From NCBI GenBank assembly GCA_017499595.2, contig CM039004.1, positions 620,001 to 684,000 of the forward strand: 64,000 bases of DNA. Direction: 5' to 3'. The notes under the pieces were generated by a model. It was not told where the DNA came from. It made no database searches and saw only the letters and a program-made list of their open reading frames with translations. The stretch comes from Psilocybe cubensis. Its lineage: Eukaryota. Positions 1,031-56,736 of this stretch are shown in pieces; position 1 is the stretch's first letter, and every line of letters begins with the position of its first letter. The position numbers and the translations under genes were made by a program.

Positions 1031-1504
1031 GGCTTGCTACAAAGATGTTCCTTTGCAAGTTTCAAGATGAATTTTCTTCTAAGCATCGCTACCCTTGGAC
1101 TGGGACTTCAAGCCTATGCTGTCATGATAGGTCCCTCCGCGACTTTGGTTATCGGAAACAAAAACATAGCTCCCGACGGAATTAAGCGCTCGTAACTTGA
1201 CCTTTTATTTTGTTACTCGTTTTGTTCTAAACAATCGCAGGGCTGTTTTAGCTGGAACTTCACTGGACACTCTATCTTTCCCCGGACCTGTAATTCGGGC
1301 CACAAAGGTACGTAAATTAATGGCTATTGCAATTTCATGAGTGGGAAACCGAGTGTACAATTTCTCAGGGCGACACGCTGAGCTTGAACGTCGTCAATCA
1401 GTTAACTGATGCCACTATGCTGATGGGCACGAGCATCGTGAGTACCTTTGTCTAGCCCTCATTATATTTCTTGAAGGTTTCTTCAGCATTGGCATGGTTT
1501 TCAT

Positions 1505-1516
1505 CAAAAAGGAACT
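1505..1516 (+). repeat. Target-site duplication, left copy (CAAAAAGGAACT)
   Basis: Identical to 3012-3023; encodes laccase Q-K-G-T. Confidence 0.95.
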
Positions 1517-3011
1517 TTTTTTTTTTTATTTTATGTTATAGCCTCTGAGGGGTGGGCCCCTCCCTTGGCTTAGTACTACCATTACAGTTTCTCTATATAG
1601 GTTGTAATCCTACTGTTCCATGTGTACTGTGTAAAGGAATAAGAAGTGTTGCTTATGAGAGATTACTAACATTTATTGCGGCGTGGTGTTTTCTGCGTGG
1701 GGTGCTGGAGTTGGAGTTGAAGGTTGAGGTTTCCTCTTCCGCTCCCGATATCGAGAGACTCGACACCAGGAGCCAAAGAGAAAAATGCCAGAGTGATAGA
1801 GCCGTTCTGTGATGTTCTTGTCTTCAAACCTAATGAGAATAGAAAGTCGGTCCTTCTGGAACTCCTCCCCATCGCGACAAAGAGCCCGTATTTGCCCTCG
1901 GATATCCTGCCTAGATACCCCTGCCTCATTTTCAAGTAATGACCATATGCTGTTTTTTGGAGTGGCGGAGTCGAAAGAGTCGCGAAGTGAATCGGCTGGG
2001 AGATCATGGACCACTATACCATGCCATGGCACATCCGAGTGAACTGTGGGTGGGTCACCAATAGTTGAATCAAAATTAGGAAAGCAATCGGAGGCCTGAG
2101 CTGCTTGAAGAATAGTCATCGGGCGAGCTTTTATTCTAGCAGTTCCAGTGTCGTTTGCAGTGTGGATAATGAGCCTTCCTGATTTTGAGACATTAGCTCC
2201 GAGAACATGACGAGGGGGGTCCCGTGACATTGGTGAGAGCTCGCTATTGAGTCGCTCCACAAAATCAGTGAGTGGACCAGATGGCTGTGTAAGTGGAAAG
2301 TCATCCCAGGATGCAATAAGGCGATTATTTGAGGAATAATGGCGGGTTGGACGAGTGACGTGAGGGCGGGTCTTAACAGGGCCTCCAGCAATTGGGGCTG
2401 GGGATGTCCTCTGCGGCGTGTGAGCTGGCTGAGCCACTGGTGTAGTTTTGGCCACTGTAGCGTATGACCGGGGCTCAGTAACCCTTTCAGGGTTTTGGGG
2501 GTGATATTCCGGGTCTGCCGGGAATAAGGTTGAGTGTAGCAGCAGAGCGGCGTGCATCGTTCGGTCACTGAGTGTGACGGTACCGTGAGAAATGCTCTGT
2601 ATAATCGCGACCGTTGCCAGAATGGAGTCCAGCAGCGTCTCGAGGTGAGCAACCTGTCCGGCAACAATGTCCGAAGACACAGCTGGCGGGGGCAGAGTAG
2701 ATGGGGGTGCAGCATCGGTGTTTGGGGCACTGTGTGGGTCCGCCAATGGTATGGGTGTGTTGACAGAGTGCTGTGGAGAGGGACCCGGAGGGGCATCCAC
2801 TGATTTCCGAGGGTGAGTTCTGCCTTTCTTTATAAGGCGCTTCGTATGGGGTGACCTCTTGGTCTGTAGCAGCTTTCGGCCATCACTCTCTGACTCTGTT
2901 GGGCCTGGGGTTGAGTCTGGAGAGCGCTGTCGCCGTGTACCCAGCAGCGGGGCCGGTGAGCTGGCACGCTGACCATGTTGATGGTGGTGGTTAGTGCGTG
3001 AGAACATCCTC
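1517..3011 (-). mobile_element. Non-autonomous non-LTR retroposon carrying only ORF1 (half-LINE / HAL1-like)
   Basis: Flanked by the direct repeat CAAAAAGGAACT (1505-1516 and 3012-3023). T-run 1516-1527 is a poly(A) tail on the minus strand. One intronless 444-aa ORF; interrupts a laccase exon. Confidence 0.92.
1673..3007 (-). CDS. LINE ORF1/gag-like protein (fungal Tad1-like), 444 aa, no CCHC knuckles
   Basis: Pro/Ser-rich basic N-terminus, a SYATVAK motif, and C-terminal motifs [10 protein letters not shown] and SILIRFED...[14 protein letters not shown] that resemble the region preceding the knuckles in fungal LINE ORF1. Confidence 0.75.
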
Positions 3012-3023
3012 CAAAAAGGAACT
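3012..3023 (+). repeat. Target-site duplication, right copy (CAAAAAGGAACT)
   Basis: Identical to 1505-1516; directly followed by laccase codons S-W-A-D-G. Confidence 0.95.
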
Positions 3024-5546
3024 AGTTGGGCAGACGGTGTTGTCGGCGTGACTCAGTGCCCTATTGCTCCTGGTCATTCTTTCCTATATCAGTTTCCCAC
3101 GGCCAACCAAGCTGGGACTTTTTGGTATCATTCTCATTACTGTGCGTATAGAGTCTAGGATATAAATCAAGGCGGAGATATTGATATATTTACTATACAG
3201 CTACACAGTATTGCGATGGCCTTAGAGGAGCTTTGATTGTTTATGATCCAACCGATCCCTATAGAACCTGGTGCGTGTTTTAATGGTAGCGCTAAAAATT
3301 AGTTTAAATTCATCCTAATTTATTTATATACGTAGGTATGATATCGACGACGGTAAGTCTCCCCTGTTTCGTCCCTTGCTAAGAAGCTGATAGCGACGAT
3401 TCTTGTCCTATCATGTGTCACAGAAAGTACAATCATTACCCTTGCAGATTGGTGGGTTCCAATATGACGTGTATTGCTCAGCCGTAATCTGACTTCCTTT
3501 TCGAAACAAAGGTATCATAAGGCTGCTCCTCTACAGACCCTCCGAACTGCTAAGGAAGATTCAGTTCTGATCAACGGGCAAGGTCGCGTTCCCGGAGATA
3601 AAACTACTGATTCAACTCCCTTGTCAGTCATAAACATAATTCCCCAAAAGCGATATCGGTTCCGTCTCATTTCAATTTCGTGTGATCCTGCATTTTCTTT
3701 CTCGATTGATGGTCATTCTATGGTAAGTCCGCTTATCAAATTTGTTAATCTAATTTTCATATGACATACTACATGATAGACCGTCATCGAAGCTGACTCT
3801 CAGAGCGTGCAACCTCTTACTGTGAATGAAATTACTATCTTCGCGGGTCAACGATATTCTTTTATTCTTTATGCCAATAATCCGGTCGGAAACTACTGGA
3901 TTCGGTCGCAGCCTACATACCCAGATGATGGGATACAAGGCTATGCAGGAGGCATCAACTCTGCCATACTACGTTACTCTGGAGCCCCCGCAGTCAATCC
4001 AACGACAAAAAAGGCTTCCATTACTATTCCTTTGGTTGAAGCAGATCTACGGCCTCTCTATAGCCCGGCCGCCCCGGGCCTTCCATCTCCAGGAGCTGCC
4101 GACGTCAACATCAAGCTCGATATTTCTTACAACTCACCTTCCGAGACGTTTTTCGTTAATAATTTCACCTTCCCAGAAGTCCCGGTTCCAGTGTTGCTCC
4201 AGATACTCAGCGGAGCCCAGTCAGCAAATGATTTGCTCCCCGCCGGATCGGTTTATACTCTCCCCCCTAATAAAGTCATAGAAATATCTATGCCCGGTGG
4301 AAGGCCCGGAAGCCCAGTAAGCTTCTCAGTTACACAAATCGTTTTCAACCCCTCTTATCTTGCCGCCTATAGCACCCTATGCATTTGCATGGCGTATGTG
4401 ATTGATCTTCATGTAGTTGACGTTACCTGACGACTCTTTTTAGCACGATTTCTCCGTCGTGCGAAGCGCCGGCAGCAATCGGTACAACTATGCCAATCCT
4501 GTCAGGCGCGACGTAGTGAACATAGGAAGGGAAGATACGGACAACGTTACCATACGTTTCAAGACCGACAATTCCGGCCCTTGGATCCTGCACTGGTGTG
4601 TCTGCCTATTCCACTATAGCCACATATTCATGCCCTGATTACGCACACATCAGCCACATTGATTGGCATATTGAGGCGTAAGTCTCAATCAGTGAAAAGC
4701 CTTTAATGATGAGATTGAATACTTTTTCTCCAGTGGTTTGGCGGTGGTTTTCACAGAGGACATTCCATCCATTCAATTCAGCAGCCCTCCTCGTACGCCT
4801 CCATGTACTATTTTCATTGATACCCTTGACTCAGATCATTTATCTAGCTGCTTGGGATCAACTTTGTCCCATTTTCAACGCCATACCTCCTCAAAAGTTC
4901 CATTAATCGGCATCGTCTTCTAGCCGTCGGAGCACCAATGCTTGGATACACCGCGTCCATGTACCTCACCGGATGGTTAGGAGAATGAAGTGCCGTCAAA
5001 TTTCAAGCTTGTAGTATTTTTCGTTTCTACTCAAACCCAGTTCACTTTTTGTTACTGTGCTGCGAATGAAGATCATACGTTGTATAAACATATTACAACT
5101 GTTCAGTATATTCTGATGGTTTAAACAATAGCCCCACAAAAAGAATGGATTGAATTATGACAACAGTAACCTACCTGGACAGAATTCCTTTCCTGTATGC
5201 TCCTATCACGAATTAAACGTAGTCTTGATACTATCAACCTCTAACTCTAACTCGGTCCTGATCACTGGCAATCACTGTACTAGATGCAGATCGAACTAGA
5301 AATAAAAGCGTTCATAGTATCTAGTCTATCCGATAATATACACCAATTTTGGCTTCCTGCGAACCTCATGGGCTATAGTGCTACGGGAGGTTTGTAGACA
5401 GGCAAGACTATCACTTGGCAGTAGTTTGGCATTTATTAGTAAGTAAGAGAGACAGACGAAATGGTCTGCTGATGACGTCGAGATATTCACTCAATCAGAG
5501 TATATTATGATGCCGACTACACGATACCTCCAGTTTGCCTCGTACC

Positions 5547-14057: not shown

Positions 14058-17000
14058 TTAAAAAAGAAATAAAGAAACCAAAAAAATAAAAATAAAAACT
14101 AAAAAAAGAAAGTAAAAAAAGAAAATTACAAGCACGGGCTTGCATGTAGACTGTGGGTGAATATTTACCTTGCCCTTGTGCTCTTGTGCGCCTGGTGCCT
14201 TGCGCGCCGCCCCGTCGTTGTGACCGTACGGCTGCGCGGTGCCTGCGGCCTCTGGATAACCACCGGAGTGGTCTGGCGTGCTGGTTCCCAATACGCGGGC
14301 TTGGGCGTGGCATTCTCCGAGTCCGTTGATGCGGCGTTCGCCGTGAGAAAAGAGTTTGGAGGGCTAGAAAGCGGATGTTAGAAAGGATCAACAATAAAGT
14401 TAAAACAAAACTCACTTTAACCTCCATGGCTCCACTCTCTACTGCCGGGCCATTACTATGGCACCCCGCCAACATCTAATAGAATATTATTAGAACTTGA
14501 TTAAGCATGTAAAAGAGGAAAAAGACTTACTTTCATGGTGTCTTCTCCACCCGACCATGGCCCCATTGCCAAATTCAGTCTGCAGTCAAAAGAGACGCTC
14601 GTGTTCAAAACGAGCGCCTCTCTGACTGAGGCTGAACTTGCCTCGGGCACGAGGCACGGCATGGACACCGTGAAGCATAGAGCCTCACGATAGTCCATGC
14701 GCTGAAAAAAAATAAGCAAAATGAGTCAGATAACGAAATAGACTATTTCAAGATGCTTACCTCGGCAACTTCCTCGTAGCTTCCTATAGAAGCAGATGCC
14801 CCAAAGGGGCTATCTGCGTCTTCCTAATTATAGAAAAAAATGAGTTGAGTGAATGCTAGAGAAAAGCCAAGCACATACCTCCACCAGTCTGCAAGTGGTG
14901 CTAGATGGTGTTTTATAGACCTAAAAAACAAATGGTTAGAAACAGAAGTAACCAAAGATGAGAACAAACTTACCATTGTTTGGCCTATATCCTCACCATA
15001 TATGCCACCCAAGAGGGCGGCATGGATGAAGTCAACCTAAAAAGAATGTAAGCATTGTAATAAATGTGAGTGAAAAAGAATAAAAACTCGCCTCGATTTG
15101 GCTTTGACCGACTTGAAGCGGCGAGAAGCTCGCTTCAACGTCGGTAGCCCAATCCTGTAATGAGAAAATGATAAGTTGAAGTAAGTTAGGCACACGAAAA
15201 AAAAACGTACGATCATCTTGAAGACTTTCTGTCTTCTGGTCCGTCCCTCGCACTCGTCGGCTCCCGAGACAAAAACCTGTGGTGCAAAATAAACGATGGT
15301 TAGCAAGAAAAACAAAAAAAGAGTGATATAATAATCGTGCCTTGTTGGCCGTTTCGGTGGCGGGGACCGCGATGGGATGTTCCTCGTCCCCATTGCGGTC
15401 CTTATCGACCGAAGGAGACGAGTGACCCTGTAAATAAGGTTAAGAACTGACTGCAACACGATAAAGATGTATGCGTACCTCGAAGTGAACGACCTCCTAG
15501 TCATTGGCGTCAAAAAATCAGAATGTGGGCAGGAAAGAAAAGATTGTGAAGAGATGCTTACAGATACATTTAATCTGGATACTTCCTGGGCATTCCATTC
15601 GTCTTCGTCAATCTCGTCGATGGTTTCGAGTATTGAGGAAGGTAGTAAAGATGACTTGAAAGCTGATGTCGAGGAGCTGGCGTGGTTGACTATGGCAGCG
15701 GGGTTATCGTGGGTCTCGTTGTTGACAGAGGTAGATGAAAAGACGTTGTAATCGATGGCGGGGAAGCTATCGGTATCGTAAATGGCGGTGTCGCTACTTA
15801 GGTTGGCGTCGTCGGTGCTGGCGATGATGATGGTAGCGGTGACTGTGATGTTGGTGGCATTGGGGGTGCTAATCGCATCGTTGTTGCTGCTGGCTGAGGA
15901 GTAATCGTTGGTCGGGGAATCGATGTTGTCGGAGGAGGTAGTGAAGGCGGAGATTGAAGGGTAGACGTGACTCTGAGCGTCAAATTGGAAGGTCGGCTCA
16001 TTTGCATCATGGCGGGTAACTTGGGTGGGTTGTGATCGGCTAGCGAGCTGGGTTCTGGACAAATTATCGACAGTACGCGCAGTTCGCCGGCTGGATACAC
16101 AAGGAAGAACCCTGATGCCAGTGCCTCCATCTCTCCTGGTCAATCCTTCTGAACCATACTCATCCACCTGGACCACATCCGTAGCAGCAAGATCGATGTC
16201 GATGGACTCCATGCTAACATTCTCTAAGCCCCCAACCCATGCCATATCATCGCCCTCGCACTCAGCTTCCAAATTGTTGATGGCTGCTGTGATAGCGGCC
16301 ATAAACCTCGCACATTCGATCCCAATCTCGGCTTCCGTCTTAACCCTCCTTCCATCCTGAGATTGAACCACTTCGCCAACATCCAGTGAAGCGGATAGAT
16401 CTTCAACATATCTGGCCGTCACCCTATCCTCGAAAGCGAACCTGTCCTCCTCACCCTCGTCGTCTGCCCCTTCCTTCTCAAACTCGATGTCATCGATATC
16501 TCGGACTCCACACACATCCTCGTGCCCATCTTCCAAAGAGTCGAAGCAGCCCATATCCTCCACTACAGCCGCATTCTCCGTCCCAACTTCGGGCTGAACG
16601 TCAATATCACAAGCATCCGGACCAAAAGGGTGGGGCGTACCATGGTCAGAATGGCTCAGAGACGTAGATGTCAAGGACAGCACGACGCTGTTGTCTTCAA
16701 GGTCCACTCCATAACGACGACTGTCGTTGATATCGCTGAAGAAGGATGCTTCTGTACTGGGCGTGGCGGGCAAAGGAGAGACAACGAAGAGGACACCAGA
16801 GCGACGCCAATCTCGGTATGGAGCGATAGCTAGGGCATCAGGGGAGGCATGAGAAATAGGAGAAGGCTTTGGCGAGACCATCTTTTCCTCCTCGACGTCG
16901 TCCGCAGAAATCGCGTAGACGTGAGTGAAGGCGAAGAAAGCTGAGATACCCATGACACCGAAGAACGAAGACCGTACCGCGCCCTCAAAGAGAATAAATC

Positions 17001-17613
17001 CAAGACGCGATTCTTCTCTCATCCTCTCAGCCCTTAACTTGCATGGGATGTACACTTCGACAGCTTTGGCCTTGGAGTACTCCCCCGCGCGAGCAGGAAG
17101 AGCCTTGACATACTCCATGGAGTCCTCGACATAATGCTCGCCAAAGACCTTTCGCATCCCGGTGTCGGCGATATGGACACCAGCATGAAGGACAACTGAA
17201 GAAGATGACGCGTCCTCAAGCTTGCCGTCTAAAGCCTTTACAGCAGCGACAACAAGAGTGTGGGCCCTCCCAATGAGGAAGTCACACGCGCTGTCGAAGG
17301 TCTTCTGTGCGCGAGTGCTGATGACGGGGAGTGTGCGGGAAATAGCACCACGTACGCCATAATTGCGTAACAGGATAGCACAAGCTATATGCTCAACGGT
17401 AGCACACAGTACGGCAGTCTCAAGGCGACCATGGCGCTCGACGAGGTCGGGAATTGAGGTCCGCTGTTCGGCGGGGATGAAGACAGAGGCACCACGACCA
17501 AAAGCACGAGCGTCGTCCAAGCGTTCCGAAAGGAGGTCGAGGGCGGGTTTCGCGATGGAGAACCGATTGAGGAAGGTCTCCTTGACGTAGTCGATAGGTA
17601 TTTTGATGGTCAT
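14058..17613 (-). CDS. Large orphan protein (~950 aa or more), acidic/Ser-Thr-rich, at least 11 exons; 3' end uncertain
   Basis: 684-codon first exon (17613-15562), then ten exons joined in frame through 51-65 nt introns. No domain recognised. Confidence 0.65.
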
Positions 17614-17787
17614 ATTTGAATAGAAACGATATAAGAAAAAAAAAGACTATTTGGCGGTTTGAGAGCTTTTTGAAGCTGGTTGTTGTTGCTGAGATACACT
17701 TGATGGTAGAAGTCTTGGTGAGAGAGCTACAGGTAGGTATACAAGAATTTATACGCTGGCGGTTCAGGCAGGCGTCACCGGGCTCCA

Positions 17788-38530: not shown

Positions 38531-38708
38531 GCTTCTCACGTGCCAGGCGGCATCTCACACGCTGCTATCTTCGGCAAGATGCACCCTAAACCCTTTCTGA
38601 GTTTTAACCATTGAGTTCGTCTTAACCTGCGCATGCATTTTTTGTAGTTGCATGGTAGGATCATCTCATACTTTGTAACCGCCAAGTCACTGCTTATGCC
38701 ATGTTCAG

Positions 38709-40247
38709 ATGATCGAAATCCTCCAACCCAATGTGTTCTCTCCAATACCAAACGAGGTAATCGCAAAGATTTTCTTTGAAGGGACAGAAAACTGGAAGCA
38801 CAATATGTTTGAAAACGACACCTATATCCATGCCTTGCCATTCCCGGAAGTCGTTGCAGGGGTATGCAGACACTGGAGGGCACTCTCACATGAAACCCCG
38901 GAGCTTTGGACTTTTATTTGTCCCCCAACTGCAGAAATTTGTCTCCGGTGGATATCAAAATGGATTCAGCGATCGAAGTCTATGCAGGTTGAAATCGTAC
39001 TGGACGAAAAAAAATTGCCCGGCATTGATAAACTAATGACAGAAATCCTAACACTGTTAGACGTTTGTGTCAGTCGGTTATGTCGCTTCGACCTTCGGTT
39101 AGAAGACATCCCTATCAGCGTACTATCTGGCTTCTCCCAGCTTGCATCTAGAGCCACGTATCTACAGCAGCTCTCGCTTTGCAATGTGTCTTCCAGACGA
39201 ACTTCCTTTGATCTAGCCGAAGGCGGAGATTACTCTTCGTTGTGCAATATTACTTCCTTATCACGCCTCAGATTCACCGGACTGTCTCTTCCATTTAATC
39301 CGCATCTCGTTTCGCTCGATGTACGTGACCTCCAACTCACATATTCCGACTTGCAAACAATCTTTGGAGTGGAATGTCGTTTACGAAACCTGGTGCTCTA
39401 TGGCCTTCGCCCAATTCACCCATCCCCTCAATCCCCTAGCAGACCAATTCAAGTTAAATCTCTTAAAACCATTGCATTGTCAATCAATGCCGCTATCGCA
39501 TCCGTGGACTCGACTTATCCTTTTTCGTTTCTTGATATGCCCAACGTGACATACTTGGAGATGGATTGCAGCGCATCTCTTACCGCTATTTTTGGAAAGT
39601 CACTGGCGTCGGCAAACATCGATACTCTCAAATTTACGAACCATTTACCTCGTCTAGTGGCTCCACCGCATACTGTGGAAAACCACGAGGAAATTCAATT
39701 TCTACAATCCTTTTCCAGTCTACGCAAACTGGAGCTCACCCATGTACCCGCTAAATTTCTGTTGAGCAAGTTCACGACTAACAGTAGTCCCTCAAGGCGC
39801 GAGGTGACTCGGCAACGCTCGATAGGCTCTCATATGCTCCAAGCCAGTCGAGTGGATTATCGCGCACACAACATCACCGTTGAACCATTGGAAGAAACGG
39901 TCGCGACCTGGCCTAATCTCGCCTTTATTCGTCTTGATACAGCCATTGCAGAAGACGTTGTATCCTTGATTTCATTCATACAATGTCACAGAAGCGTCCG
40001 TACCATTGAGCTCTCTACATCAGCAATGCGACATCTCAGCTTCTTAAAAAGAAAGGGCGATACCGTTTCTACTAGCCCTCCGGATATTTTATTCCGACTT
40101 AACCGGAGACGTACTTTGGAGGGCGATGAGGGCTCCACAGAGGACGTTAAAGAGTGGTTGAGCAGCATAGTTGACTTGAAGACAGCCGCGCCGACCAATA
40201 ACCTATTATCAAATGGCGGATCTGGCCTGCTTTCACGATTGCCGTAG
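38709..40247 (+). CDS. F-box-like / LRR-like protein, intronless, 512 aa
   Basis: IPNEVIAKIF...VAGVCRHWRALSHETPELWTFI, followed by LxxLxL repeats. Confidence 0.85.
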   Translation: MIEILQPNVFSPIPNEVIAKIFFEGTENWKHNMFENDTYIHALPFPEVVAGVCRHWRALSHETPELWTFICPPTAEICLRWISKWIQRSKSMQVEIVLDEKKLPGIDKLMTEILTLLDVCVSRLCRFDLRLEDIPISVLSGFSQLASRATYLQQLSLCNVSSRRTSFDLAEGGDYSSLCNITSLSRLRFTGLSLPFNPHLVSLDVRDLQLTYSDLQTIFGVECRLRNLVLYGLRPIHPSPQSPSRPIQVKSLKTIALSINAAIASVDSTYPFSFLDMPNVTYLEMDCSASLTAIFGKSLASANIDTLKFTNHLPRLVAPPHTVENHEEIQFLQSFSSLRKLELTHVPAKFLLSKFTTNSSPSRREVTRQRSIGSHMLQASRVDYRAHNITVEPLEETVATWPNLAFIRLDTAIAEDVVSLISFIQCHRSVRTIELSTSAMRHLSFLKRKGDTVSTSPPDILFRLNRRRTLEGDEGSTEDVKEWLSSIVDLKTAAPTNNLLSNGGSGLLSRLP

Positions 40248-54329: not shown

Positions 54330-55913
54330 CTAAGGTAGTTGTACCAGTGGAACTTCCTTGGTGGATGGCAACAAACTTTCAAGGTCGAGGGTATCTTCCA
54401 TTAAATCCAAATGAACCATAACGCTCAACCACTCCTCCACATCTGCAGTCCCAATATCTTTATCTTCCTCAAATGGAGACCCCCTTCCAGATAGAATTAT
54501 TGGAGGAGATGTGATCACTGTATTGCCTTTCCTTCTCAAGAACCGTAAATGTCGCATGGCCAAGTACGATAAATTGAGGGAACGAATTCCTTTGTGGTAT
54601 GTTATGAAGGATATCAAGGACACTACATCATCTGCTAGCATTGTATCAAGCGATATCGTGTGCAATTTAGGCCATACCGCCTCAAGGGAATCCTCGGATC
54701 CCTTTGATTTTGCGTGGAGGACTGCAGGAGGAAGGCCATTGGAGTCAATTATGGAGCCCATAGATGGCTTTCGATTGGGAAACTTTCCTCCACTGGAGAC
54801 AGTAAATCTATCCAGTAATGTCTTTGCTGATACCCGTATAAGTTCCAAGGATTGCAGTGATGAAAACGACCGAAGAACATTGGTATCTTCGTTCTCAGCC
54901 TCGCGAACGATAGGTAGAGCGTTCCTTATTCTTAGGGTGTGGATTTTGGATGAAGAAAGGGACTGACCAAACACCCCAAAAATACTTGTGTCGAGGTCCA
55001 ACTCCAAATACGTGACATTTGGCATATCAAGACAGGAAAACAGGTATGTGGACGTTCTTAAAGAAGGACTTTTGTTATTGCTGACTGCAATAAACTGTAG
55101 GGAGTTTACTCGAGTTCGAGGACCAGATAAGGCGATACTTGGTATTATAGGGTATAGATCAGGGAGGATGAGATATTTGAGCCGACAGTTGTCTCCGAAG
55201 AGCACTGAGATGTCCGCAAATGGTAAATTTAGTTTGTGTACCTCCAAGCAGGTCAGCTGGGGGGTATATGGGAGTGGCAGGCCTTGATATCTGAGCCTTT
55301 GTAAGCCAGTTAACTGCTCAAGCCAGGATGAGTTGCTGGTGTGAAACACCGCTTCTGTGTGTGGCGTTCCTATGAACGGTACACTTGTATATGTCTGACA
55401 AAGGGAAAGCTGCTGAAGCCCAGTCGCCTTCCCAAGGATCCTAGAGATGTACTGCACCGGAACGAGCTCCACCCGAATGTCAAAACGGTGTAGCCGATGT
55501 GCGAAAACTTCCACAAAATCCAGGATCTCGAATAATATGGTTTCCGATAATGGATCCCGACGATTCGTGTTCCTTGCCCATGCCTTGTTGTCCATAATTA
55601 CGGCGACGGGCAACGCTTTTGACCTTTCGAACCAGTTCGACATCCATGCGATACATCCTTCAGCAGTTGGGGGCTGTATTTGTGTCCACAACTCGGGCGT
55701 ACTTTGTGCGAGGGCTCTCCAGTGTTTGCACACTCCTGAAACAAGGTCTGGAAATGGCACGGTCCTCGTTCTATCCTTAGTGCGACCACGGGCGGCGAAA
55801 TCGAGGGCTTCCTTCCAACTCTCGGTTCCTTGATAGAATATCCTTGCAGTTACCTCGTTTGGGATCTGGTCAAAAATGCTGCAGTGAAGAGTCGAAGCTT
55901 CGGCCACCTCCAT
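54330..55913 (-). CDS. F-box-like / LRR-like protein, intronless, 527 aa (paralog of 38709-40247)
   Basis: IPNEVTARIF...VSGVCKHWRALAQSTPELWT; shares LDMPNVTYLE, DVVSLISFI and AMRHL.FL.RKG.TV.TSPP with the other copy. Confidence 0.85.
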   Translation of the reverse strand: MEVAEASTLHCSIFDQIPNEVTARIFYQGTESWKEALDFAARGRTKDRTRTVPFPDLVSGVCKHWRALAQSTPELWTQIQPPTAEGCIAWMSNWFERSKALPVAVIMDNKAWARNTNRRDPLSETILFEILDFVEVFAHRLHRFDIRVELVPVQYISRILGKATGLQQLSLCQTYTSVPFIGTPHTEAVFHTSNSSWLEQLTGLQRLRYQGLPLPYTPQLTCLEVHKLNLPFADISVLFGDNCRLKYLILPDLYPIIPSIALSGPRTRVNSLQFIAVSNNKSPSLRTSTYLFSCLDMPNVTYLELDLDTSIFGVFGQSLSSSKIHTLRIRNALPIVREAENEDTNVLRSFSSLQSLELIRVSAKTLLDRFTVSSGGKFPNRKPSMGSIIDSNGLPPAVLHAKSKGSEDSLEAVWPKLHTISLDTMLADDVVSLISFITYHKGIRSLNLSYLAMRHLRFLRRKGNTVITSPPIILSGRGSPFEEDKDIGTADVEEWLSVMVHLDLMEDTLDLESLLPSTKEVPLVQLP

Positions 55914-56736
55914 CTTGCGGCACGCACCTATGAATCAGGCTTGCGAACGACGCGGAAGAGCCTTAAATATCTCACCAGTATTGTGCCAAATGAGCGCTAC
56001 TCTTGTAAGTTAGAACCTGCAGAATGGGTGTTTCAAGTTCGACCTTGGTCGGGTACTGGTGAATGGGAGTGACAGTCGACTGAGAAGACTTTACAAGCCA
56101 AAATATCCAGTGACCTGGTGACCCTCGGGTTTAGGGTTTATATAAATATTGACATCAGTAATGTGTTTTACTTTATCTATTTTGAGTTTATATCAATTTC
56201 ACATTGAAGTACGCGCAATGGCATGGGTCTTCAACCTCGCAGAACTCTTAGAATTAACATCAAAAATTTTTAAGAAATAATTTCAACCAATAAGCCTGCT
56301 CCGTATGTATCAGTCCTTAGTGCATCCAAGTCAAGTGCGGGACTCGAATATAAAGCGCACGACTCAATGCTCCGATCCTCAGAGCAAGGTAGAAACGAGC
56401 TTGGGCGGCATGCATCATGTTCAATCAACCATATGATTGCGCCTGACCATCGGAAGAGACGGAGAGTCGGGATACCGAATTCTGTTTAAGATACAAGCGC
56501 AACAGAAGGCGCCGGCAGATAGTAATCATTCAGAATACGGATTTGCATGGGGTTTTGTACTGGTACTGGTCTTGAATCAGGGGCAGGTTTTTTATAGACA
56601 TCGGGTAGGCGTAAGGTTTTCTATGGACCCAAAAGTTGACATTCGGATGTTATCCTTCCAGGAATATATTATAGAAAATCTGAAAAAGTGGCCTGTCAAC
56701 CACAAATTGCAGAAAATGTACGTACGACCATCGGTA

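Follow-up and report, generated by a model that had tools for sequence, protein, structure and literature searches.

A Psilocybe cubensis laccase exon split by a retroposon whose only product is probably an ORF1-like protein

An interrupted laccase exon

The DNA analysed here (the window) is a 64,000-nucleotide stretch of the Psilocybe cubensis genome (GenBank assembly GCA_017499595.2, contig CM039004.1, positions 620,001 to 684,000 of the forward strand). Near its beginning, an exon of a host laccase gene is interrupted by 1495 bases (1517-3011), which are bounded by the identical 12-mer CAAAAAGGAACT at 1505-1516 and 3012-3023. This insert is very probably a young copy of a non-autonomous retroposon family of the non-LTR (non-long terminal repeat) type, the sole product of which is a gag/ORF1-like RNA-binding protein, without reverse transcriptase (RT). 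The plus strand of the insert starts with 12 T (1517-1528), corresponding to a 12-A tail on the minus strand. The minus strand encodes an uninterrupted open reading frame (ORF) of 444 amino acids (aa) at 3007..1673, with 4 nt (GAGG) between the 5' boundary and its ATG and a 3' untranslated region (UTR) of 144 nt between its stop codon and the A-run. Neither an RT nor an endonuclease domain was found in the ORF by a Pfam scan, the sole match being DUF2103 (E 0.055, under its cutoff). A sequence-only reading of this stretch had described a 1495-bp insert between identical 12-bp repeats, a minus-strand poly(A) tail, an uninterrupted 444-aa ORF 4 nt from the 5' end with a 3' UTR of ~145 nt, and the absence of endonuclease and RT; each of these was borne out, the first by the empty site described below as well as by the sequence. 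The features of the locus are as follows (positions of the window; X10 is one of four public runs introduced below).

1487..1516, plus strand: host laccase exon, upstream piece (...HWHGFHQKGT), from translation; joined to 3012 onward in the spliced X10 contig
1505..1516, no strand: target-site duplication (TSD), copy at the poly(A) end, CAAAAAGGAACT on the plus strand; joint 1504->3012 with 12 letters that fit both sides in 4/4 runs
1517..1528, minus strand: poly(A) tail, 12 A; reads of other copies turn loose at 1516-1519, just beyond the tail
1517..1578, minus strand: 3'-terminal module of ~62 nt with an AAUAAA-like signal and a hairpin (1540-1570), common to other repeat families
1529..1672, minus strand: 3' UTR, 144 nt, from the positions of the ORF and the A-run
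1673..3007, minus strand: intact ORF, 444 aa plus stop; predicted basic disordered N-terminus, helical region, tandem RNA recognition motifs (RRMs), and basic C-terminal tail
1733..2032, minus strand: predicted RRM-like domain 2, aa 326-425 (VIA-align)
2033..2335, minus strand: predicted RRM-like domain 1, aa 225-325 (VIA-align, Foldseek)
2525..2677, minus strand: predicted helical region, aa 111-161, with the family-wide motif LExLLDSVLATxxIIQ (AF2 model)
2982..3007, minus strand: 5'-terminal 26 nt (ATGTTCTCACG...ACCACCACCA), conserved at the nucleotide level; candidate internal promoter/5'-end signal
3008..3011, minus strand: four extra G-rich nt (GAGG) between TSD and ATG, absent from some copies
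3012..3023, no strand: TSD, copy at the 5' end of the element, from the repeat match and the empty-site joint
3024..3141, plus strand: host laccase exon, downstream piece (SWADGV...FWYHSHY), from translation

The flanks of the insert read in one frame across the laccase exon. The flanking peptides correspond to what we take to be the copper-binding signature regions of laccase/multicopper oxidase, and a Cu-oxidase Pfam match lies downstream (3780-4427, E 2e-16). Approximately eight pairs of identical 12-mers are expected by chance (64,000 x 2,000 pairs x 4^-12), so the 12-bp repeat alone proves nothing, and the empty site is the decisive control. All four public runs (X5, X8, X10, and X14) aligned to 1100-3400 contain the joint 1504->3012, which skips 1507 bases (1495 + 12) and leaves 12 letters that fit either side. 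It is carried by a 4893-bp contig in X5, an 8546-bp contig in X8, 31 raw reads in X14, and a 763-nt contig with a depth of 6836 in X10. Because the X10 contig also skips the GT..AG introns 1306-1366 and 3142-3200, it represents spliced laccase mRNA of the uninterrupted allele, and X10, the record of which gives only "RNA?", was treated as RNA on this ground. The presence of the exact empty site in all four runs indicates that the insertion is recent and strain-specific. With its poly(A), 12-bp TSD, and exact empty allele, the insertion is a precise event of the target-primed reverse transcription (TPRT) type into a laccase exon. The laccase regions 1241-1437 and 3012-3272 are very abundant in X10, the contig depth being that given above.

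A dispersed family with exact ends

Neither blastn nor tblastn detected a further copy within the 64-kb window, and the tail and 5' motifs of the insert were matched there solely by the insert itself. Elsewhere in the species the element is repeated. The protein cluster of the window ORF at 90% identity has eight members, and all seven that are named come from P. cubensis, recorded on contigs of five different sizes; an additional, decayed Psilocybe copy is 85% identical. In X14 (raw reads, at least 90% likeness) the mean depth is ~268 over the element and ~54 in the flanks, a ratio of ~5, with no drop toward the 5' end of the element. Among the rows listed, reads of other copies turn loose beyond the A-tail at 1516-1519 (240 and 70 reads) and at 3008 and 3009, which lie 1-2 nt upstream of the ATG (47 and 43 reads), the latter placing GAGG outside the shared element. 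In that strain there are thus ~5 similar full-length copies per flank-equivalent with common 5' and 3' termini. Contigs of X10 are 100% identical to the window over 1587-2065 and 2067-2997, which points to a matching source copy in another strain, and this copy is probably transcribed.

Relatives of the protein are found in other mushroom-forming fungi of the Agaricomycetes. A HMMER search against 1.84 billion representatives returned 121 proteins at E<=1e-3, 18 of them at <=1e-30; these family representatives are clusters at 50% identity. Named homologues come from Cyclocybe aegerita, Flammula alnicola (at least four near-identical loci), several Mycena species, and Schizopora paradoxa, so that the range of the family spans Agaricales and at least one member of Hymenochaetales. 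All 121 have the stand-alone form of ~400-460 aa or are fragments or fusions thereof, and no RT or endonuclease domain was found in the 54 of them that were scanned with Pfam. A family profile search recovered the same family only, and, as weak evidence, the 8000 candidates scored included no fused or longer relative. In public gene models the ORF of the element is joined to host genes, namely DUF6533 in Psilocybe and NmrA-like and NACHT/NB-ARC-like genes in other species, and these may be either annotation artefacts or real chimeric transcripts. The fused models are P0016, P0020, P0019, P0065, and P0129.

A scan of metagenome contigs with a 10-row alignment gave 26 related loci, 22 of which have the stop codon in view. 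In 13 of the 22, the stop is followed 170-471 nt downstream by an A-run or A-rich tail; one further locus (L007) ends with A6 at the end of its contig, seven contigs stop too early, and the decayed copy L015 has no tail within 924 nt past its stop. None of the 22 continues into ORF2 or any long ORF, and Pfam found no RT in eight ORFs of at least 180 aa flanking the metagenome loci. A TSD of 9-12 bp lies directly at the boundaries in five of the seven elements with both flanks (the window copy, L003, L008, L018, and L020). The L018 element (L018:2435-3458) is located in a locally repeated region, in which a ~300-bp unit including the target sequence recurs downstream, and the TSD call is ambiguous there (9-20 bp) for this reason. 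In the orientation of the element, four of the five clear TSDs open with A and then read ACT, AGT, CT, or CAGT, and that of L018 opens with AAATAT. This hints at a preferred nick site, with the leading A's indistinguishable from the tail and five sites too few.

The 5' end of the family is defined to the nucleotide. In all 18 metagenome loci that include it, similarity begins exactly at the A of the ATG. From -30 to -1 the majority base occurs in 5-10 of the 18 sequences, and from +1 to +26 in 16-18 of them, third codon positions included, except at +12 to +15. In the other elements 1-7 nt, mostly G-rich, separate the TSD from the ATG. After the first Met, the reading frame contains no other before residue 151, which lies upstream of the RRMs.

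The 3' end is shared more widely. In 4/4 runs, reads or contigs matching 1517-~1578 part from the window sequence behind 1576-1579 and continue in at least three different ways, and the depth peaks at the shared tail (515 versus ~75 in X5 and 431 versus ~50 in X8). The continuations are unrelated to the window sequence at this position, indicating that they belong to other repeat families possessing the last ~62 nt and are not diverged copies of the insert. The shared tail contains a hairpin (AGCC..GAGGGG-CCCA-CCCCUC..GGCU). When nine tails of this form (type A) were aligned, 88.9% of cells pair, versus at most 58.7% with slid partners, and one compensatory pair is present (UA in 5, CG in 3). 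An unrelated type-B tail (GUAUUCUC...GGAGAAUAAACA) ends the elements at L005:1134-1229, L011:5453-5548, and L023:783-878. In a tree of the RRM half, the tail-B members L005 and L023 are nested in a clade with 97/99 support that otherwise has tail A, and because of this position it is suggested that the 3' tail has been replaced or exchanged within the family. A third tail form, ...GACAAUAAA followed by an A-run, occurs in two near-identical elements (L025:11613-11708 and L026:7124-7219; dS 0.009). When the 26 loci and the window were searched with the additional tails for a sign of a LINE (long interspersed nuclear element) partner, the motifs were found only at the ends of ORF1-only elements.

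The ORF is under purifying selection. By the Nei-Gojobori method, applied to ORFs without internal stops (L002, L011, L012, L013, L015, L018, and L020, with 1-12 stops, were excluded), the ratio of non-synonymous to synonymous substitution (dN/dS) is 0.17-0.34 for family pairs with dS of 0.06-0.5; the pair L001-L004, for example, has an omega of 0.26 over 429 codons (dS 0.494, dN 0.126). Among the Psilocybe copies, 13 of 28 ORF variants are synonymous (among 40 of 185 variant rows listed). Within the rows listed, common variants (at least 30% of X14 reads) are synonymous in 10 of 15 cases versus 33% expected for random transitions, and rarer variants are non-synonymous in 10 of 13, two of these being stop codons. 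This is the pattern expected if master copies need the protein while dead copies decay. C>T and G>A changes prevail among the X14 copies, accounting for 90 of the 131 places that vary, and 15 of the 17 such ORF changes listed are in CpG context, the signature of methylated repeats that decay by deamination.

The sequence-only reading had proposed a recently active family. Both parts stand: the family follows from the ~5-fold depth in X14, the eight-member cluster, and the copies with common termini, and the recent activity from the polymorphic insertion, the intact ORF, and the identity to RNA contigs of another strain. The comparison of dN/dS between copies, proposed there as a check, gave the purifying selection described above. 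It had also named two findings that would speak for another origin; copies continuing into an RT ORF were not seen at any of the 22 loci, and an intron-bearing host parent gene appeared neither among the 26 loci nor among the 121 homologues.

The protein, a possible mechanism, and other explanations

An AlphaFold (AF2) model was built from a 28-row alignment and has a mean predicted local distance difference test score (pLDDT) of 72.7. In this model the basic N-terminus is disordered, aa 111-139 form a confident helix (pLDDT 80-90), a second helix spans aa 148-161, the proline-rich linker is disordered, and the C-terminal half is confident. A Foldseek search of the PDB gave 56 matches at E<=1e-3, and all of those listed are tandem-RRM proteins, among them IMP3 RRM12 (2e-6), UP1, U2AF65, HuR, and PABP. 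By VIA-align, a structure search independent of Foldseek, RRM 1 (aa 225-325) matches 5w0g_A (U2AF65 RRM1; Z 8.5, root-mean-square deviation (rmsd) 2.9, 80 residues) and RRM 2 (aa 326-425) matches 4y00_A (TDP-43 RRM1; Z 7.5, rmsd 2.5, 78 residues). The protein is therefore predicted to fold as a helical region plus two RRMs. A trimer prediction with three copies of aa 104-166, run without controls, scored 0.02. No Pfam family was found in the 28 members at E<=5, apart from scattered chance matches, and Transposase_22/L1 ORF1 (PF02994) has no match in the window ORF or the 28 members at this threshold; a sequence comparison of solved structures with the family profile gave nothing below E 0.03. 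Among named clusters, the nearest neighbours by a protein language model are arthropod DUF4780 (11/30, best 0.90), PRE_C2HC, and zf-CCHC, which we take to be typical of the gag-like proteins of insect LINEs; these neighbours are no more than a lead.

How such an element might move can be outlined as follows. Transcription by RNA polymerase II would start at, or 1-2 nt before, the ATG. An internal promoter within the invariant first 26 nt would drive it, and this promoter is proposed because nothing upstream is carried along. The protein would coat its own RNA in cis. The ~62-nt 3' tail, which comprises the hairpin and the A-tail and is common to other repeats of the genome, would be recognized by the endonuclease/RT of an autonomous LINE, and this recognition would allow the RNA of the element to be copied in trans: the enzyme would nick the target and reverse-transcribe the RNA into new sites, with a few G-rich bases added at the 5' junction. 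Tail swaps would let the element follow another partner. The ORF1-only, trans-mobilised reading is well supported, and the suggestion that the partner is a Tad1-like LINE is a guess. More speculatively, and on balance rather improbably, the system as a whole could be a split LINE, in which the RNA-packaging ORF1 and the endonuclease/RT reside on separate, interdependent retroposons that share the ~60-nt 3' tail and swap it when partners change; the first 26 nt would then both encode MFSRxNHHH and provide the internal promoter for an mRNA with almost no leader.

Several observations weigh against the trans-mobilised, ORF1-only reading. No RT was found by Pfam in the 69 of 89 window ORFs scanned, which leaves the window without a LINE, and no autonomous partner was seen among them; the repeats that share the tail may themselves be other non-autonomous elements rather than LINEs. 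Taken by itself, the hairpin of the window is unremarkable (minimum free energy -17.8 kcal/mol, z -1.05 versus shuffles), and the lone compensatory pair may reflect a single event. Two of the seven elements with both flanks have no clear TSD (6 bp in L002, none in L026). A 5' UTR of 0-5 nt is awkward for cap-dependent translation. No sequence homology to known LINE ORF1 was detected by Pfam, by the profile search of solved structures, or by the family profile search, and the protein has no CCHC knuckle (no CX2CX4HX4C pattern; the last 120 aa include two Cys and four His). The evidence on transcription has its own difficulties: X10 is inferred to be an RNA run from the intron-less laccase contig alone, and a 2158-nt X10 contig follows the element over 2067-2997 and then runs into 1227 nt of unrelated sequence, leaving it 10 nt inside the ORF. 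This contig could reflect a 5'-truncated copy embedded in a different transcript, or the assembly could have passed through another copy, and because it runs on past 2997, part of the element RNA may be chimeric or read-through. Lastly, the read-level results come from 24 of 81 loose-end rows and 40 of 185 variant rows of the run alignments.

An alternative that we regard as unlikely assumes the same mobility and takes the ORF to be a captured cellular tandem-RRM gene that serves, or rides on, the retroposon. The lack of a sequence match to LINE ORF1 families or solved ORF1 proteins (ORF1p), the best fold matches to the cellular tandem-RRM proteins named above, and the missing CCHC knuckle are what would be expected of such a gene. 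However, each of the 121 relatives that could be detected is a stand-alone protein of ~400-460 aa, or else a fragment or fusion of this form; a cellular paralogue, whether intron-bearing or differently placed, did not turn up, and the language-model neighbours, as a lead only, lie with DUF4780, PRE_C2HC, and zf-CCHC (best 0.90). Moreover, the RRMs of type I ORF1p are described as not alignable between clades (PMC4120745). The claim of the sequence-only reading that the element keeps its own ORF1 protein thus holds for the predicted RNA-binding, gag/ORF1-like tandem-RRM fold and not for sequence homology to any LINE ORF1; its overall interpretation fared in the same way, in that the TPRT retroposon and the recent, ORF1-like-only family stand and a detectable relationship to LINE ORF1 does not.

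It is also conceivable, at a very low probability, that no self-propagating short family exists and that each short copy is made afresh, like a SpIRE, from full-length LINE RNA that has lost ORF2 by splicing or deletion. The character of the element shifts at ~1578, where the shared tail begins, and this could be an old junction. In X14, however, the depth of the 3' UTR bins (~332-335) is at least that of the ORF bins (~190-310), and no well-supported loose end leads from the ORF or UTR into other sequence among the 24 rows listed. Furthermore, the 3' UTRs and tails of the short forms have diverged from species to species, with ORF2 following at none of the 22 loci, and most of the diagnostic substitutions common to copies are synonymous, in keeping with master copies of the short form. 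Equally improbable is the explanation that the copies are processed retrogenes, made by a LINE from an ordinary host mRNA. A poly(A) tail, a TSD, and an intron-less ORF would be expected of a retrocopy too, but several species each carry multiple copies of the element with independent TSDs, its 5' end is at the ATG in 18/18 loci without any host 5' UTR, its conserved 3' tail is common to other repeats, and no parent gene was seen among the loci and homologues surveyed. Finally, the view that the insert is an isolated 5' portion of a LINE, polyadenylated too early, for which the single-copy architecture alone would speak, can practically be dismissed in view of the ~5x flank depth with common termini in another strain, the eight-member protein cluster, and 13 other loci of the same architecture.

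The family is an unnamed one, without a Pfam model, members of which are annotated in fungi as hypothetical proteins and give rise to chimeric gene models (DUF6533, NmrA, NACHT). It is a live mutagen, here splitting a laccase gene for which another strain shows high expression, and by such a split it can create phenotypic differences between cultivated Psilocybe strains; the insertion can also be used as a presence/absence marker between strains. Being dispersed, compact, and fungal, with termini that are exact, an ORF under selection, and tails that can be swapped, the family is a tractable system for two questions, the role of an ORF1 protein for its own RNA and the recruitment of LINE enzymes in trans.

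Outside this locus the window is gene-rich and ordinary, with genes for an aldehyde dehydrogenase, an aminotransferase, a cap methyltransferase, ribosomal L5, a major facilitator superfamily (MFS) protein, and a beta-galactosidase. At E<=1e-4, Pfam gave no match for three long window ORFs, at 15040-17646 (minus strand, 869 aa), 38679-40244 (plus strand, 522 aa), and 54333-55934 (minus strand, 534 aa).

Comparison with known systems

HAL1 of mammals is described as a non-autonomous non-LTR element that encodes an ORF1 protein only and depends on the ORF2 protein of a LINE (PMC5753468). The element described here likewise encodes only an ORF1-like protein, without endonuclease or RT. It differs in that HAL1 derives from L1 and its ORF1 is of the L1 type, whereas the present protein has no L1 ORF1 signature and is predicted to contain two RRMs; it is also fungal and begins at its own ATG. 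In Drosophila, HeT-A and other telomeric elements are reported to be ORF1-only and to rely on the ORF2 of other families, and such lineages can, according to the same source, found new ORF1-only lineages (bioRxiv 10.1101/2025.06.09.658640). Elements of the HeT-A kind (Jockey clade) are telomere-specialised, several kb long, and equipped with MHR (major homology region) and CCHC motifs, whereas the family described here is dispersed, situated in genes, 1.5-1.7 kb long, and devoid of both CCHC and MHR. No telomeric head-to-tail array was seen, the window copy lying in a laccase exon of a gene-rich region and other copies being fused to host gene models.

In the classification of ORF1p by Khazina & Weichenrieder, type I (I, Jockey, R1, Tad1, plant L1, and L2) has one or more RRMs followed directly by a CCHC knuckle, with two RRMs in subtype IB, and type II combines a coiled coil and one RRM with a C-terminal domain, or CTD (PMC4120745). 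The predicted two RRMs resemble type I, whereas the CCHC knuckle that defines this type is absent; the predicted upstream helix resembles type II, and the protein falls under the definition of neither. In pairs of a SINE (short interspersed nuclear element) and a stringent LINE, such as UnaSINE1 and UnaL2 of the eel, only the 3' tail is common, often as a stem-loop. SINEs are, however, short non-coding Pol III transcripts, whereas this element is protein-coding with an ORF under selection and has no small-RNA head, as an Rfam search of 1400-3100 gave no match at E<=1.

Among fungi, MarorLINE-6 (Inkcap) of Marasmius oreades is described as a LINE-type element with no RT and "no protein domains", of which new insertions were observed, and its authors suggest that a related LINE supplies the RT (PMC9674265). 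It resembles the present family as an RT-less mobile family in a fungus of Agaricales, a comparison made by description only, and differs in being similar in sequence to its RT-bearing relative and variably 5'-truncated, as that account has it (PMC9674265). The EKA (Avrk1/Avra10) family of Blumeria graminis stems from a LINE ORF1 (PMC4641428); it was co-opted from truncated or degenerate LINE copies and is not described as a discrete TSD-flanked ORF1-only retroposon. A description of an ORF1-only retroposon in fungi was not found in the full-text literature, subscription journals and Repbase being outside the search, with MarorLINE-6 and the EKA genes coming closest, and ORF1-only retroposons have so far been described from mammals and Drosophila telomeres. 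In its presumed function the element matches HAL1 and the ORF1-only elements of Drosophila, being a member of neither group.

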